This document shows, in pieces, positions 12,502 through 61,730 of a stretch of 64,000 bases of DNA (its first letter is position 1; every line of letters begins with the position of its first letter). A program made the translations under genes and the position numbers. The stretch is from a virus (Duplodnaviria; Heunggongvirae; Uroviricota; Caudoviricetes), in the IMG/VR virus record IMGVR_UViG_2609459822_000013, positions 12,652 to 76,651 of that record. The stretch is one strand, 5' to 3'. The notes beneath the pieces are model-generated. The model worked only from the letters and a program-made list of their open reading frames with translations. It did not search any database and had not been told where the DNA came from.

Positions 12502-12780
12502 CAGCGCGTTGACGTGTCGCCGTTTCTGTCAGCCAGCCATAACCGGGCCAATCCTTCCCGCGAGCGACGGCGGAATAGTCAAAAACACGTAATACCGGAT
12601 CAACAGTCCCATTAACAGGTCAGGCGCTACCTGGGTAGAAGAAAGCGCCATTCACCAATTTTATAAAATTCTGGAAACGGTACTGATGAAGCGCCGTTTT
12701 CAGTGTTTTATAACTGTTTTCACTCCCTGCGGTGTCGAGTTTTGCGGGGGTTATATTTTTCAGAATAGGAGATTATTCTG

Positions 12781-25409: not shown

Positions 25410-27746
25410 ATGGATACCAGTGTAGGTACAATTTATTACGAAGTTGATGCGAAAACTAGTCAACTTCTCGTTGCACAACGACAGGCAGACCAGGCCTTTG
25501 GGCGTATAGAGCGCGGCGCAAAACAGGCTGACCGCCAGGTAAACACCCTGAAAACATCCATCAAGGCACTGACCAGGGTTATCCATTTGCTAATTGCTGC
25601 GGAGGCCGTGCGTCAATTCATGGATATGGCGGAGCAAGCAAAAATGCTTCGCGTAAAAATCAAAATGCTTACGGGCGATGCGGAGTCCGCCGGACGGGTT
25701 TTTGATGGCCTAAAAGCAATATCAAAAGAAACAGGCCAAAGCATGAAGGATACCGGGGATCTGTGGCAAGGCTTAGCTATCTCACTGAAGAACACGTCCG
25801 CCACTGAAGGGCAATTGCTTAACCTGGTAGGTACGATTCAGAAAATGGGGGCGTTGGGCGGCGCGTCAGCTGAGCAGATGTCAAACTCAATGCGTCAATT
25901 CCGTCAGTCTATCGACGGTGGCGTGTTGCGTGCTGAAGAATTCAACAGCCTGTTAGAAAACACCCCGACCATCGTACAGACAATGGCACGCCAGATGGGG
26001 TTATCAATGGGCCAATTCCGCGCCGAAATGCTGGACGGTAAGATCACGGCAGAAAGGATGGTTAACGCAATCCAGGCGGCTACGCAGGAAACAAACGAGA
26101 AGTTTGCGCAGTTGCCGCGCACATCCGGCATGGCCCTGAATGAGCTTAAAGTCGAGGTTATGGGACTTGTTGAGCAATTGGATGATCTTTTCGGTGTATC
26201 CGATACGGTTGTTGCTGGTATCGATCTTGTAACGAAAGGTGTTAAGGCTTTAGGTGAAGGCGCTGATTTCGCTAAAACCTGCTTTAACACCCTGAAGACG
26301 GCTGGTGGCGAATTCATCGACATGTTTGAAGATGTCAGAATCAAGGCTGGCGAGGTAGCCGAGAAGATCATCGCAATGGTGACGCCAATCAAGGCACTAA
26401 TGGATGCCTACAAATGGATGAAGGAGGTCGTAGGAGAGCAAACCGACGAATATAACAGCAACTACGAGAAGAAATACGGTAAGACCGTTGGCAAGGTCAT
26501 GCAACTACAGGATGATCTGACCGCAGCAATCCAGGCTACAGAAGAAGCAAGGAAAAATGAACAGAATGCCGCCAATGACGGAGCGATTACCGGATTCGAA
26601 AAGCCAGTAGACAAACCGAAAAAACAGAAAAAAGAGAAGAAATCTGAAGCTGATCGTCTTGGCGATAAAGGTATAAGCGTTTCTGACCAGTACAACAAAG
26701 ACGCCGCCGCTATGCGCAAAGCGTTAGAGAGCGGCAAGGCCATTGATGCTGCATTCGCCCAGGGTAAAATCACTCTCCTTGAGTACCGCGCCGCGCAAAA
26801 AGGGATAGGTAAGGAACTAAAGGAAGAATTAGCACAAATTCCGGTAGAGGAATTGCGCGACAAATGGGAGCAAATAGTAAGCCCGATGGATCAGCTAAAG
26901 GGCGAAGTAGACCCTATTCAGCAGGTTCAAAATGAATGGGCCGTCCGTAAGCAAATGCTTATCGACCTGGGCGTGACGGAAGCGCAACAGAAACAGGAAC
27001 TGTTAGCCTATGAGCAACAGATCCGCGATCTGAAGTGGGAGCAATGGCAGGCGCAAAGCGACACAAACAGCCTTATCGGTGATTGCGTTAATGGCCTTAA
27101 AGGTGGTATGAGCAATGCACTTGTTGGCCTGTTAAATGGTACTCAATCATTGAGTGATGTTTTTGCTAACTTAGGCAGCAATATCCTCGGGAATATCGGT
27201 AACAGGCTTTCAGACATAGCTGCAAACTGGATAGCAGATCAGATCATGATGGAAACGCAAAGCAAAGCGACTCAGGCAAGTACCACGGCGGGCGCGGTAG
27301 CGGCGCAAGGCCAGATTGCTGCGGCGGCGGCCCCGGCGGCGGCGGCAACAGCGGCGTCAACTGGCGGCGCATGGGCGGCGGCTGGTTCTGCGGCACTCAC
27401 TGCGATCATGTCGCTGGCTACGTCAATTTTTGGCGGCGGTCGCTTTAATGGTGGTAGCGTCATTGGTGGCAATATGTACCGTGTAGGGGAACACAACAGG
27501 CCGGAGCTATTCCAGACATCTAACGGAAATCAATATATGATCCCTGGCGAGAATGGCAGGGTTATTCCTGGTCGTGACATTGGCGGTGGCATTAGTATGC
27601 CTGTCAATATCAACATTCAGACCACAAACGGATTTAGCGACGAGGACAGCCGCAGACTTGAGCAGACAATGGAACGTGTAGCAATGAAAATGATAACAAG
27701 GGAATCACAACGACCAGGCGGAATATTGCAACCTCGCCGCAAATAA
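25410..27746 (+). CDS. Tail tape measure protein
   Basis: 778 aa; long helical, Ala/Gly-rich, typical tape-measure composition; position upstream of gpM/L/K/I/J. Confidence 0.7.
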   Translation: MDTSVGTIYYEVDAKTSQLLVAQRQADQAFGRIERGAKQADRQVNTLKTSIKALTRVIHLLIAAEAVRQFMDMAEQAKMLRVKIKMLTGDAESAGRVFDGLKAISKETGQSMKDTGDLWQGLAISLKNTSATEGQLLNLVGTIQKMGALGGASAEQMSNSMRQFRQSIDGGVLRAEEFNSLLENTPTIVQTMARQMGLSMGQFRAEMLDGKITAERMVNAIQAATQETNEKFAQLPRTSGMALNELKVEVMGLVEQLDDLFGVSDTVVAGIDLVTKGVKALGEGADFAKTCFNTLKTAGGEFIDMFEDVRIKAGEVAEKIIAMVTPIKALMDAYKWMKEVVGEQTDEYNSNYEKKYGKTVGKVMQLQDDLTAAIQATEEARKNEQNAANDGAITGFEKPVDKPKKQKKEKKSEADRLGDKGISVSDQYNKDAAAMRKALESGKAIDAAFAQGKITLLEYRAAQKGIGKELKEELAQIPVEELRDKWEQIVSPMDQLKGEVDPIQQVQNEWAVRKQMLIDLGVTEAQQKQELLAYEQQIRDLKWEQWQAQSDTNSLIGDCVNGLKGGMSNALVGLLNGTQSLSDVFANLGSNILGNIGNRLSDIAANWIADQIMMETQSKATQASTTAGAVAAQGQIAAAAAPAAAATAASTGGAWAAAGSAALTAIMSLATSIFGGGRFNGGSVIGGNMYRVGEHNRPELFQTSNGNQYMIPGENGRVIPGRDIGGGISMPVNINIQTTNGFSDEDSRRLEQTMERVAMKMITRESQRPGGILQPRRK

Positions 27747-27752
27747 ACAAAA

Positions 27753-27771
27753 CCCCGGCACAATGCCGGGG
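27753..27771. terminator. GC hairpin terminator (likely bidirectional)
   Basis: ccccggca-caat-gccgggg, nearly identical to the hairpin at 21213; A-run on one side, T-rich on the other. Confidence 0.4.
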
Positions 27772-27777
27772 CTATCT

Positions 27778-27957
27778 TTATTCAATTTCATCATTTTTAA
27801 ATTCGCCGTTTGCATAAAGCTGTAATGCGCTTATCAGTTCGTCAGCTTGCTTTTTGTCTATTACAATCATCTCGCAGTCGCTAACGTTCCATAATCTTCC
27901 ATCATCTTCAACACTAAGATCAATCCTTCTGCATTCTTCAGTCTCATGAATAATCAT
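27778..27957 (-). CDS. Antisense small ORF, 59-aa acidic protein
   Basis: Hand-translated, not in track; GAAGG RBS; DGR-containing sequence loosely similar to the 62-aa moron at 30114-30302. Confidence 0.3.
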   Translation of the reverse strand: MIIHETEECRRIDLSVEDDGRLWNVSDCEMIVIDKKQADELISALQLYANGEFKNDEIE

Positions 27958-28285
27958 TATAAACCTTCATTATGTTATTAATTTTAGTGAATAAATTTAC
28001 TCAAATCTTGTATACCCTCTTTCAATTTTCCCTCCGTGTACACTTCTGGCAAATACCGCGTCAGTATACCTAAAAAATGGGCATGTATATGTATCACCTT
28101 TACTATCCATCCATTTTAGCACCCATGCCATACGTTTTACATTGCTTTTATTTGCCGGGTTTTTCATTTTATTTTCCTCCGCAAATTACAATCTTTCGTT
28201 TCTTGCTATATAGCTGCGAGAAAACATTACCAACCAAATATTCCAGATCTCCCTCCAGGTGAATTTATCGTCCTCCATACCCACC

Positions 28286-28540
28286 TCACTTATGGCAACC
28301 GCGAACGCCAGACAATTCATTGAATTTATGGTGTTCAACAATCACCCACTCCTTCAGATCCTGGCTATAGACTCGCCAGTCTAAATTGGCGCGGAAGGCG
28401 TAGCCGTAACCGTCTTTCAATTTTTTGGGTGACGCATTCTTGTTTAAAAACGCGTTCAAAAGTTCCTTTGCTTTTTTGACTGCATGCCCCGGCGCGTTTT
28501 TCTGTGCTTTCAGATTTTTGTCAATCGCTACCAGTTTCAT
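28286..28540 (-). CDS. RelE/YafQ-superfamily toxin-like protein (putative)
   Basis: 84 aa; C-terminal FRANLDWRVY...VIVEHH resembles the RelE/YafQ/HigB core. Confidence 0.4.
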   Translation of the reverse strand: MKLVAIDKNLKAQKNAPGHAVKKAKELLNAFLNKNASPKKLKDGYGYAFRANLDWRVYSQDLKEWVIVEHHKFNELSGVRGCHK

Positions 28541-28557
28541 AACTCACCCCATCATCC

Positions 28558-28713
28558 TTAGTTAAGTGCCTTCAGGAAGAAGTCCCGGTATTCATCTTCT
28601 TTTGCATTCATCATGAATTGACCGTATTTGAATGCGTCGTCGAAACCCTTAACGATTGCTATTTCCACTTGTTCGAATGCGTTGTTTAGCATTACCACTA
28701 CATAGCGTTTCAT
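28558..28713 (-). CDS. Small 51-aa protein upstream of the toxin-like gene (candidate antitoxin)
   Basis: Internal ATG (MKRYVVV) with GAAGGAGG RBS; 17 nt upstream of the toxin-like ORF. Confidence 0.35.
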   Translation of the reverse strand: MKRYVVVMLNNAFEQVEIAIVKGFDDAFKYGQFMMNAKEDEYRDFFLKALN

Positions 28714-28880
28714 TTTGGGCCTCCTTCGTTGGTACTGCTTTTCTTCTTGCTTTCTGTATACATCTTGTTGCGAACTATGTGAAGCCATTTTGTAAACTAG
28801 CTATAATCATTGTACTGAAGATCTCATTTTCGCGTAGAAGCGCGTAAAGATATATACAAAATGTAACTTATGGGGGTTTT

Positions 28881-29234
28881 ATGCCGGAAGCTTTCAGATG
28901 GACGCCGCAAAGAAGCTACAGCGTGACCAGGGAGCCAAACGTATCTGTCATTAAACTTGGTGATGGGTATGAACAGCGCCAGGCGAAAGGGATCAACACA
29001 TTGCTTGATAGCTACACCCTGGTTTTTAAAGGCAGTAGCGCAGGATGCGGTGATGGTGGGAACGTGGCGATCCAGGCAGAAGCATTCTTGAGGGCGCGCG
29101 GCGCTAGCGAGGCTTTTTACTGGTCGCCGTCTATGGATGGCGTGCAAAGGCTTTTTGTTTGCCGTAGCTGGAGTATGACAAAGGACGGGCCTGTATACAC
29201 GCTAAACGCAACGTTTGAGCAAGTTATTAATTAG
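28881..29234 (+). CDS. Minor tail protein M (lambda gpM-like)
   Basis: 117 aa; FRWTP...GDGYEQR...FEQVIN pattern matches lambda gpM. Confidence 0.6.
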   Translation: MPEAFRWTPQRSYSVTREPNVSVIKLGDGYEQRQAKGINTLLDSYTLVFKGSSAGCGDGGNVAIQAEAFLRARGASEAFYWSPSMDGVQRLFVCRSWSMTKDGPVYTLNATFEQVIN

Positions 29235-29243
29235 GGAGGGGAT

Positions 29244-29426
29244 ATGCCTTATTTTTGTGTAGTGGAGCGCACTGGCGCTTTTACATTGTTCGCCGACTAT
29301 GAAATTAATGATCTTACTGTCCGGGCTGATAACGGTGAGACGTGGTATCTTCATGATATGGGTGATGGATATATCGGCTGTACGACTTGGGATGGCAAAG
29401 AAGTAGCATTTCTATCCTACGATTAA
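29244..29426 (+). CDS. Hypothetical small protein
   Basis: 60-aa ORF with GGGAGGGG RBS, followed by a terminator. Confidence 0.3.
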   Translation: MPYFCVVERTGAFTLFADYEINDLTVRADNGETWYLHDMGDGYIGCTTWDGKEVAFLSYD

Positions 29427-29428
29427 AA

Positions 29429-29455
29429 AAAACACCCCGCCACGGCGGGGTTTAT
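29429..29455. terminator. Bidirectional rho-independent terminator
   Basis: A6 + ccccgcc-acg-gcgggg + T3 between converging genes. Confidence 0.5.
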
Positions 29456-29527
29456 AGTGTCGATAGCAGAATGCATGACAATCCAATAATGATAATGATC
29501 ATTTCCAGAACGTAATGTTCGCACATC

Positions 29528-29776
29528 TCATAACGCCCCCTTCAAATATGTCAATCCCTTATCAGTGACGAATGAGTGATTAACCTGGTTTTCATCCGTC
29601 ATGATGATAAATAACTTTTCCTGTAGGTATTTCGCTTTAGGGTACAGCGTTAAGCAGACCTGGTACAGTATCCCGCGCTCAATCAGCAAATCAATAAATT
29701 CGTGTTCATGATAACCGATGAGGCGGGCGGCCTGTTTCAACGTGTACACATAATCACCGTGATTGCGCCGCCCCAT
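29528..29776 (-). CDS. Antisense moron, 82-aa protein with HTH-like segment
   Basis: Third gene of a minus-strand three-gene cluster; LKQAARLIGYHEHEFIDLLIERGIL looks helix-turn-helix-like. Confidence 0.35.
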   Translation of the reverse strand: MGRRNHGDYVYTLKQAARLIGYHEHEFIDLLIERGILYQVCLTLYPKAKYLQEKLFIIMTDENQVNHSFVTDKGLTYLKGAL

Positions 29777-29785
29777 GTTGCCGCC

Positions 29786-30133
29786 TTATTTATCGAATGC
29801 TGAAAGGTTATCGATACAGAAATCTTTCGCAGCTTTTTCGTATTCGCGTTTTGCTTCTGGATCGTCAGCCGGGAAACCTTTTGCGTGTATTTCACCAGGG
29901 CAAGACTGATCCATAGAGTCTGCAAAATTAACATTGAAGTTAACATTAATATCTTTCGGGTTCATATCTTCCACCTCATCAACTATCTGTACCGGATTAG
30001 CAGTATATTTCACTGGATGGCCTAAACTACATTCAAGAATCCTGCCTTCTTCCAGGGCTACTTCTTCGCTATCAAATAATCCGAAACACTCCTTGCTACC
30101 ACTTAACCACACATCAAGACTGTATTTTTTCAT
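29786..30133 (-). CDS. Antisense moron, 115-aa acidic protein
   Basis: Internal ATG (MKKYSLDVW) of track ORF; overlaps the upstream gene by 20 nt. Confidence 0.35.
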   Translation of the reverse strand: MKKYSLDVWLSGSKECFGLFDSEEVALEEGRILECSLGHPVKYTANPVQIVDEVEDMNPKDINVNFNVNFADSMDQSCPGEIHAKGFPADDPEAKREYEKAAKDFCIDNLSAFDK

Positions 30134-30302
30134 TTTTGTTAGCCTCATATTTGACAGGTTCGATCTGGTATCCCAAAAGGCGGTCATCCTCAGCAAGTAA
30201 AAGCGCGTCAACCAATGCTTCCCCCTCGTCGTCATACAGGGCGATAACCTTTTCCCTACCGTCTGTCATGAATACCGTCAACTTCCATAGCTTTTCAGTC
30301 AT
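30114..30302 (-). CDS. Antisense moron, 62-aa acidic protein
   Basis: Internal ATG (MTEKLWK) with GGAGGTG RBS; first gene of the cluster. Confidence 0.35.
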   Translation of the reverse strand: MTEKLWKLTVFMTDGREKVIALYDDEGEALVDALLLAEDDRLLGYQIEPVKYEANKNEKIQS

Positions 30303-30430
30303 AACGCACCTCCGCGCCATTTTGTTAACTTCCCCTTCGTTTGAGTAAAATATACATATTGTAAAACAACGATCAATCCATTTTGGTATGATTTAGCGTG
30401 ACGCAGATCACAAAATGACAAGGTGAGAAA

Positions 30431-31135
30431 ATGCGCAATATTCCGAGAGAGATGATTATTGATTCCGTCGATGCCGGAGTTGGCGCGGTCATTGACTTAT
30501 TTGAACTGGACCTTACTCCCCTGGGAGGCGAGGTTATCCGCTTCCATTCCGGCGCGAACGGCTATTACGGCCAGGTTATCTGGAAGGGAGTAGCTTACAA
30601 CAGCTACCCGATCGAGGCGACGGGCTTCGAAATGAAAAATGAGGGTGTTTATTCACGGCCTCAAATGGTTGTAGCCAATATCGGCGGACTCATTACGGGG
30701 ATGAACAACGATTTTAACGACCTTAGAGGAATGAAGGTTACGCGCCGCCAGGTGGAGGTGAAATATCTTGACGCCGTTAACTTCCCTAACGGTAATCCAG
30801 ACGCAGATCCATCTATTGAGGCTGTATCTTTTTACGTCGTTGAAGCAATGAGCGAAGAAACAGCGGATCAGGTGCAGTATGAACTGTCAACGCCAATTGA
30901 TGCAGATAAAGCTGTCATCCCTGGGCGCACCATCCTTGCTGACGTTTGCCAGTGGCAATACAGAGGCGACGGGTGTATGTACGCTGGCGGACCAGTAGCA
31001 AACGATAAAGACGAGCCGACAAGCGATCCTAAAGCCGACAGATGTAGCCACCGTCTGAGCGGTTGTCGTTTACGTTTCCCGCGTCCAAATCCGTTACCAA
31101 TTTCCTGTTTCCCCGGTTCAAGTAAGGTGGGCTAA
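30431..31135 (+). CDS. Minor tail protein L (lambda gpL-like)
   Basis: 234 aa; cysteine cluster near the C-terminus; position between M and K. Confidence 0.6.
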   Translation: MRNIPREMIIDSVDAGVGAVIDLFELDLTPLGGEVIRFHSGANGYYGQVIWKGVAYNSYPIEATGFEMKNEGVYSRPQMVVANIGGLITGMNNDFNDLRGMKVTRRQVEVKYLDAVNFPNGNPDADPSIEAVSFYVVEAMSEETADQVQYELSTPIDADKAVIPGRTILADVCQWQYRGDGCMYAGGPVANDKDEPTSDPKADRCSHRLSGCRLRFPRPNPLPISCFPGSSKVG

Positions 31136-41325: not shown

Positions 41326-41599
41326 CAAAAGCAATTTTCCCGGATGTCTGTATACAAAAACGCCGCAAAGTTTGAGCGAAGTCAATAAACTCTCTACCCA
41401 TTCAGGGCAATATCTCTCTTGCAGGTGAATGCAACGTCAAGCGATGGGCGTTGCGCTCCATATTGTCTTACTTCCTTTTTTGAATTACTGCATAGCACAA
41501 TTGATTCGTACGACGCCGACTTTGATGAGTCGGCTTTTTTTTGCCTGTTATTTATCAGCGTCTACCCTTTAAGAGTCCACCCAATGACCGGAGGGAAAT

Positions 41600-45843: not shown

Positions 45844-46044
45844 TCACGAGGACTGAAGTCTCTCGCAATTAAAATTTATCAGTTTTACTTTCTGCTCTCT
45901 GGAAACGGCTGCTTCTTTTTTACCTGAGAGCATTTTTTCGCATTCTGATTTCGTTAGTTTAGATTTTGAATATCTTGTCCAGTTAGTAGGAGTGCCACCT
46001 TCCTTTTCAATAGTGGCGGTAATTTTATACATGAACACCTCCAT
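45844..46044 (-). CDS. ydaC: Rac prophage protein YdaC-like
   Basis: Small ORF between xis and ralR; start uncertain. Confidence 0.45.
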   Translation of the reverse strand: MEVFMYKITATIEKEGGTPTNWTRYSKSKLTKSECEKMLSGKKEAAVSREQKVKLINFNCERLQSS

Positions 46045-61576: not shown

Positions 61577-61652
<76 letters not shown>

Positions 61653-61655
61653 TAT

Positions 61656-61730
<75 letters not shown>

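Follow-up and report, generated by a model that had tools for sequence, protein, structure and literature searches.

An antisense gene pair in the tail module of an mEp021-like Escherichia coli prophage: a predicted RelE/ParE-fold protein and a small upstream partner naturally lost in one lineage

Within 64,000 nucleotides (nt) of viral DNA (Caudoviricetes; positions 12,652 to 76,651 of IMG/VR record IMGVR_UViG_2609459822_000013), a stretch referred to here as the window, we examined two small genes on the minus strand of the tail module, between the genes for the tape measure and gpM. A first-pass annotation of the window had described an antisense two-gene cassette at this position (28286-28713), in which an open reading frame (ORF) of 51 amino acids (aa) with a strong ribosome-binding site (RBS) is followed 17 nt later by an ORF of 84 aa. 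Coordinates and flanking genes were confirmed, the RBS is GGAGG placed 6 nt before the ATG, and exactly 17 nt separate the 51-aa stop codon from the 84-aa ATG. The two genes share a strand, each has its own RBS, and the 84-aa and 51-aa genes both start with ATGAAAC (at 28540 and 28713, respectively). The features concerned are as follows.

25410 to 27746, plus strand: tape-measure gene, homologues of which match PF20155 (TMP_3)
28286 to 28540, minus strand: 84-aa gene, PF24732 (ParE_like), product predicted to belong to the RelE/ParE superfamily
28558 to 28713, minus strand: 51-aa gene, first gene of the antisense operon, with ORF and RBS read from the sequence
28720 to 28724, minus strand: GGAGG RBS of the 51-aa gene, kept as GGAGG in related loci
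28881 to 29234, plus strand: gpM, PF05939 (E = 8e-28)

The host prophage is an E. coli element of the mEp021-like ('mEpimmI') group, a phage group described in PMC11893012, where the 51-aa and 84-aa genes are not discussed. Its nucleotide identity to mEp044, mEp013, mEp515, mEp554, mEp010, mEp021 and MagusPhagus is 83-92%, and all of these phages carry the same two genes at the same site, annotated as hypothetical proteins. A longer, 76-aa form of the small ORF, starting at an in-frame ATG at 28788, was rejected as an artefact because relatives differ in the reading frame of its leader, conservation being confined to the 51-aa core.

Both ORFs are genuine genes. Across about 50 related loci, drawn from IMG/VR, phages in GenBank, E. 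coli genomes in RefSeq and further assemblies, the 51-aa gene has a median ratio of nonsynonymous to synonymous divergence (dN/dS) of 0.040, with a median dS of 0.61, and the 84-aa gene a median ratio of 0.073, with a median dS of 1.08, the latter ratio being found also for a 30-aa ORF that follows them in some of the loci. No frameshift was found in the small genes of this sample, and the combination of low dN/dS with intact frames therefore identifies the 51-aa and 84-aa ORFs as real genes and not chance ones.

The resemblance of the 84-aa protein to RelE/YafQ/HigB toxins, first proposed from the sequence alone, is upheld by profile comparison and by structure prediction. The hidden Markov model of PF24732 (ParE_like) matches residues 20-74 of the protein over profile positions 3-66 of 67, at E = 6.3e-7 and 29.7 bits, above the curated cut-off of 24.4 bits; all full-length homologues carry the same precomputed Pfam match, and RefSeq and UniRef already list close homologues as 'ParE family toxin-like protein'. 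The protein is also a member of phrog_1525 (function unknown), and it is strongly basic, with an isoelectric point (pI) of 9.9. A HMMER scan of 1.84 billion representative proteins recovered only 12 relatives, and a word-index search re-seeded with these 12 yielded a 28-sequence family alignment reaching down to about 22% identity. AlphaFold2 given the 12 close homologues returned a predicted local distance difference test score (pLDDT) of 45.7, which the addition of distant PF24732 members, to 28 sequences, raised to 84.6, with a predicted template-modelling score (pTM) of 0.73. Strands are predicted at residues 3-7, 10-13, 47-50, 55-59 and 65-69, and helices at 18-32 and 70-77, giving the compact alpha/beta fold expected of the RelE/ParE superfamily. 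Foldseek placed YoeB at the top (probability 0.98, template-modelling (TM) score about 0.48). The nearest folds are those of YoeB, HigB, YafQ and RelE; ParE-type folds scored lower than RelE-type ones, with ParE2 of the PaaA2-ParE2 complex (5czf) also among the matches. Models in BFVD for proteins of phages RaK2 and fHe-Yen9-04 show the same fold as ours (TM 0.72-0.77). Sequence and profile searches of the PDB gave no meaningful match to any solved toxin. The agreement of the Foldseek result makes the fold assignment solid, though the scores are modest and the N-terminus is atypical, and the model places the 84-aa protein in the RelE/ParE superfamily.

The toxins nearest in fold, YoeB (of YefM-YoeB), RelE (of RelBE), YafQ (of DinJ-YafQ) and HigB, are ribosome-dependent mRNA endonucleases. 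Residue conservation in the 28-sequence alignment suggests that the 84-aa protein may possess a RelE/YoeB-like active site: R56 is invariant, K40, H70, Y/F73 and N74 are nearly so, and the basic pair K39/K40 and the His-x-x-Tyr/Phe motif (H70, F/Y73) appear to lie where RelE-type enzymes have active-site residues. When the family profile was aligned by hhalign with E. coli YoeB (an approximate sequence), R56 paired with YoeB R65 and K39 with E46, in a weak alignment (E = 0.013, probability 3%). The protein resembles this group in the arginine of its 'hRhh' strand, which is the residue so paired, in a His/aromatic motif after the last strand, and in the presence of a small co-oriented ORF upstream. 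It differs from the group in its predicted N-terminus, a beta-hairpin and one long helix instead of a helical hairpin, and, as noted, in lacking a sequence-level match to any solved toxin; unlike the toxin genes of that group, its gene also occurs naturally without the upstream partner. Proteins of the mEp021 group have an invariant N-terminus and an extra invariant C-terminal tail, GV(K/R)G(C/A)HK.

The 51-aa protein is acidic (pI 5.1), rich in hydrophobic residues and constrained over its entire length. It had been noted as belonging to no known antitoxin family, and this holds: it has no Pfam match even at E<=10 and none in NCBIfam or PADLOC, and the best hit of a PDB profile search is irrelevant (E = 0.44), so that in these four resources it matches no antitoxin or DNA-binding family, whether ribbon-helix-helix, helix-turn-helix, AbrB, Phd/YefM or others. 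Its sole family match is phrog_29810 (function unknown). Its 57 database clusters all derive from E. coli phages and share at least 75% identity with it, and no homologue was found in the GTDB species-representative genomes. It is a strongly constrained mini-protein, limited on this distribution to the mEp021-like lineage, and its sequence looks like that of a compact mini-domain with a hydrophobic core. A ribbon-helix-helix domain was considered and rejected, since no profile matches at E<=10 and both faces of the N-terminal strand are hydrophobic. Unlike YefM/Phd, RelB and DinJ, to which it is unrelated, it has no detectable DNA-binding domain. A recognisable antitoxin family is nevertheless not strictly defining for type II modules, as PaaA2-like exceptions exist. 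PaaA2, an antitoxin of 63 aa that pairs with ParE2 in an E. coli O157:H7 prophage, likewise has no DNA-binding domain; it is an intrinsically disordered, helical protein, and its operon is under the control of a third gene, paaR2. PaaA2-ParE2 is the nearest precedent for so small an antitoxin without a DNA-binding domain. The present locus differs from it in that no paaR2-type regulator was seen there and in the extreme conservation of the 51-aa protein, and the two systems share no sequence similarity. Rfam detected no RNA antitoxin or riboswitch in 27600-30500.

Because the census of related phages was seeded on gpM, it is unbiased towards either small gene. Where gpM is at least 84% identical (n = 30), both genes are present in 28 phages and the 84-aa gene alone in two; the 51-aa gene alone, and neither gene, were each found in none. 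Conservation of the 51-aa ORF, on which the antitoxin proposal had been made to depend, is evident from this count and from its dN/dS. Where gpM is 65-70% identical (n = 50), the cassette is absent from every phage, and the gap between tape measure and gpM is 3-500 nt. Such presence/absence polymorphism among syntenic phages is the behaviour of morons, accessory cassettes with transcription of their own that are set among the essential late genes of lambda-like phages, and the accessory (moron) character ascribed to the pair at first reading is sustained by this absence and by a bidirectional terminator described below. As in phage morons, the cassette lies between two tail genes on the opposite strand, ends in an intrinsic terminator and varies among related phages in presence and in shuffled content; the promoter here is a candidate recognised by eye.

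The 51-aa gene is missing from four loci: L007, E. coli UMNK88 (L021), L049 and L053. In these, the leader and RBS of the 51-aa gene are joined directly to the ATG of the 84-aa gene at the 7-nt repeat ATGAAAC (L007:3834-4012, L021:1500-1680). Since both genes start with ATGAAAC and the junction falls at this repeat, the rearrangement therefore suggests a microhomology-mediated deletion. Three different intact 84-aa alleles are found in the 51-less loci, with dN/dS of about 0.05-0.1; those of L007 and L021 differ at 38 nt (dN 0.056, dS 0.995) and retain R56 and H70. The L007 protein is identical to P0009, which occurs also in the pair-carrying loci L003-L006 and L008. The UMNK88 chromosome contains a single matching place and therefore no second copy that could supply the 51-aa protein in trans. 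The toxin gene of a type II module is expected not to be kept intact without its antitoxin; all four of these loci keep the 84-aa gene intact. Nor do the two proteins co-diverge, as read from their sequences: 84-aa alleles that stand beside one identical 51-aa protein share 99, 93, 67, 64 and 62% identity.

Outside this group, PF24732 homologues were found in about 70 jumbo-phage records (121Q, PBECO4, K64-1, RaK2-like, fHe-Yen9-04) and in Sortsne-like siphophages; the jumbo phages we take to be virulent. The K64-1 homologue (gp471) is annotated 'YafQ-like ribonuclease toxin', and no common neighbour of the gene emerged among the jumbo-phage and Sortsne-like records. In 39 species-representative genomes the PF24732 gene follows DUF2857 (27 genomes), an Rv2179c-like 3'-5' exoribonuclease (7 genomes) or other genes; the first two arrangements are found among loci L112-L149, and in both of them the start of the PF24732 gene overlaps or abuts the upstream gene. 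The first arrangement, found in Enterobacterales and relatives, has the order DUF2857, ParE_like and a protein of about 416 aa (e.g. L113:881-1704), and this synteny probably represents the backbone of an integrative and conjugative element (ICE) or genomic island. The second arrangement lies in prophages, and in L137 the PF24732 gene precedes a Dam methylase (L137:890-2576). None of the 39 genomes has a 51-aa homologue or a known antitoxin upstream of the PF24732 gene; only PF24732 genes of the mEp021 group have the 51-aa upstream gene. A shared downstream partner of about 90 aa, which would make the distant PF24732 genes toxin-first modules, was considered and rejected: the downstream proteins in L009 and L019 are dissimilar, and other contexts differ.

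We favor, at a probability of about 0.45, a reading in which the 84-aa protein is a solitary RelE-fold effector and the 51-aa gene a dispensable accessory. The two genes would be co-transcribed as the conserved core of a moron-type antisense operon. The 84-aa product, to judge from its fold and conserved residues, would act as a solo, RNA-directed and translation-inhibiting effector, with an activity that may be low, conditional or tolerated in the lysogen, and the 51-aa protein would serve either as a dispensable modulator of the 84-aa protein or as an independent first gene of the operon. Both the ribonuclease activity of the 84-aa protein and the role of the 51-aa protein are matters that we infer. 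Probably the 51-aa protein is not an obligatory antitoxin, and the locus would therefore not be a classical addictive type II toxin-antitoxin pair. More generally, natural loss of the small gene with retention of the 84-aa gene argues that some phage RelE/ParE-fold genes are not addiction modules. A bolder version, which we consider unlikely, is that PF24732 comprises mobilome-wide RelE-fold effectors without dedicated antitoxins, to which the mEp021 lineage recruited the 51-aa protein as a non-essential tuner or trigger-sensor.

Several observations weigh against a solo effector. Antitoxin-first order, the 17-nt gap and the contrast in charge (pI 5.1 and 9.9) resemble a type II pair. The pair is the most stable part of a heavily shuffled operon, being retained by 28 of the 30 related phages, and one clone has nothing but the pair in its cassette, the gap between tape measure and gpM being 685 nt; retention and the pair-only cassette together therefore mark the pair as the core of the insertion, which favors a functional unit. 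The 51-aa gene was never found without the 84-aa gene, and the four 51-less loci probably stem from one deletion event. In every context examined, moreover, the PF24732 gene comes second, behind a variable upstream gene that it either overlaps or closely follows, so that these variable genes could be mix-and-match antitoxins among which the 51-aa protein is not singled out. A literature search found no paper naming PF24732 or 'ParE family toxin-like' and no characterised member of the family.

The leading rival is a classical type II module in which the 51-aa protein, as a minimal antitoxin that lacks a DNA-binding domain, binds and neutralises the 84-aa protein, the pair stabilising the prophage or aborting competing phages; we regard this as somewhat doubtful. 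The layout is that of such modules, two small, adjacent, co-oriented genes with the presumed antitoxin first, a short gap and a strong RBS, and to this may be added the RelE/ParE fold of the second product, the retention of the pair even as a whole cassette, the absence of any solitary 51-aa gene, strong purifying selection on both genes, and the precedent of PaaA2, whose partner ParE2 is among the fold matches; the charge contrast is compatible with binding. Such a module is difficult to reconcile with a 51-less lineage that keeps intact, selected 84-aa alleles, one of them shared with pair-carriers, and with UMNK88, which has no second copy. It would also leave unexplained the lack of co-divergence between the partners, and the PF24732 relatives elsewhere that lack a 51-aa partner. 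The 51-aa protein, besides matching no antitoxin family, is constrained throughout, unlike the typically fast-evolving antitoxins. Of the antitoxin-first, toxin-antitoxin-like arrangement described by the first-pass annotation, gene order and synteny stand, while the assignment of the 51-aa protein as antitoxin is opposed by the 51-less loci, the independent divergence and the partnerless relatives.

Alternatively, the 84-aa protein could be a non-toxic regulator or adaptor of phages and ICEs, using the RelE/ParE fold for binding nucleic acid or the ribosome, with the 51-aa gene a mere operon neighbor. Its status as a backbone gene in the DUF2857 synteny (27 genomes) and in phage early-type regions, with no known antitoxin, would suit such a role, as would its being tolerated alone in lysogens. 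We think this quite unlikely, because the arginine, histidine and aromatic residues that match catalytic positions of YoeB/RelE vary little or not at all, all top fold matches are active toxins, and the strong basic charge is typical of toxins directed at ribosomes or RNA.

Very improbable, finally, is neutralisation of an 84-aa toxin by another or additional factor, such as a 30-aa ORF redundant with the 51-aa gene, which would give a three-part or toxin-first module. In its favor, every locus examined has at least one of the two small ORFs (the four 51-less loci, 4/4, keep the 30-aa ORF and all 30-less loci keep the 51-aa gene), the 30-aa ORF is real by its dN/dS of 0.073 and has an RBS overlapping the 84-aa stop codon, and an ORF of about 90 aa begins within 15 nt after some of the distant PF24732 genes. 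The 51-/30-aa pattern lacks statistical significance, however, since the 51-less loci amount in effect to a single lineage and the 30-aa ORF occurs in about half of loci; the 30-aa peptide has no family match, and the downstream ORFs of the distant relatives are mutually unrelated.

Should the bolder reading, of effectors without dedicated antitoxins and a tuning 51-aa protein, prove true, RelE/ParE-fold proteins would have in the 51-aa protein a partner of a new kind, and the locus would offer a handle on the 'orphan toxin' genes of phages. If the two genes instead formed a genuine toxin-antitoxin module, the RelE/ParE repertoire would gain a very small antitoxin from a new family, and the pair would be a candidate defence or stabilisation module for prophages of a group common in the human gut. 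Loss of the 51-aa gene with retention of a toxin-fold gene constitutes a natural experiment, and PF24732 is flagged as a widespread, uncharacterised family of presumably virulent jumbo phages, ICE-like island backbones and prophages. The finding is incremental because the toxin-like identity is already present in Pfam and RefSeq names, and nothing in the arrangement of the pair lies outside known phage biology.

The pair heads a longer antisense operon, a mosaic of cassettes in the order 51, 84, 49, 30, 56/58 and 59 aa, of which all after the 84-aa gene are optional. In the window the remaining elements are the following.

28755 to 28783, minus strand: candidate sigma-70 promoter, TTCACA-17 nt-TATACA, found by eye only
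28186 to 28278, minus strand: 30-aa ORF, MEDDKFTWREIWNIWLVMFSRSYIARNERL (starts MEDDKFTWREIWNIW), optional third cassette, with an RBS, GAGGTGG, that overlaps the 84-aa stop codon
27997 to 28167, minus strand: 56-aa ORF, optional cassette, no significant family match
27778 to 27957, minus strand: 59-aa acidic ORF, last and optional cassette, phrog_13627 (function unknown)
27751 to 27773, both strands: bidirectional intrinsic terminator from a terminator scan, separating the stop codon of the tape-measure gene from the antisense operon's end

The 30-aa ORF keeps its length and frame in about half of loci and is annotated only in MagusPhagus. In mEp021 (locus L002, 872-2206) a repeated zinc-ribbon protein of 158 aa and other ORFs take the place of the cassettes after the pair, and the distal operon is therefore freely exchanged while the 51-aa/84-aa core stays. 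On the minus strand the terminator stem has 10 pairs, 7 of them GC, and the plus strand has a hairpin to match. A promoter consensus scan found nothing upstream of the 51-aa gene, missing the candidate because its -10 hexamer ends in A. Every aligned locus keeps both hexamers and the 17 nt between them, including loci with a different spacer sequence such as the 51-less lineage, which has the version TTCACT-17-TATACA. We infer that the operon may be expressed from a promoter of its own.

On the plus strand, the conserved spacer upstream of gpM contains an invariant TATAAT (28802-28807), the flanks of which vary among phages. An imperfect palindrome, TTTACGCG-N6-CGCGAAAA (28848-28827, in minus-strand reading), separates this TATAAT from the gpM RBS. 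In combination, the TATAAT and the palindrome could be a promoter for re-initiation and a 5' untranslated region element for the tail genes downstream of the bidirectional terminator. Directly after gpM, in the region 29244-29451, is a 60-aa plus-strand ORF (phrog_3249), which a terminator-like minus-strand hairpin (29434-29451) sets apart from a second antisense cassette located between gpM and gpL (29528-30320, minus strand). This second cassette comprises an ORF of 62/51 aa (phrog_29559), an ORF of 116-149 aa (phrog_38567) and an 82-aa KilAC/ANT-like protein (PF03374, E = 1.8e-6). Its first gene is exactly 51 aa in most relatives, and the hydrophobic pattern of the product resembles that of the 51-aa protein studied here. 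Paralogy of the two was considered and not adopted (BLASTP E = 8, hhalign nothing), the alignments being shallow (effective number of sequences, Neff, 1.2) and this comparison not decisive.

Elsewhere in the window, Rfam matches (41421-41538, 45848-46026, 61577-61727) comprise the host small RNA (sRNA) FnrS, the antitoxin sRNA RalA and two tRNA genes. RalA is the sRNA antitoxin of RalR/RalA, a type I system of the Rac prophage. The presence of FnrS, RalA and the tRNA genes therefore identifies the window as chromosomal E. coli DNA, with an mEp021-like prophage near Rac-related sequence.

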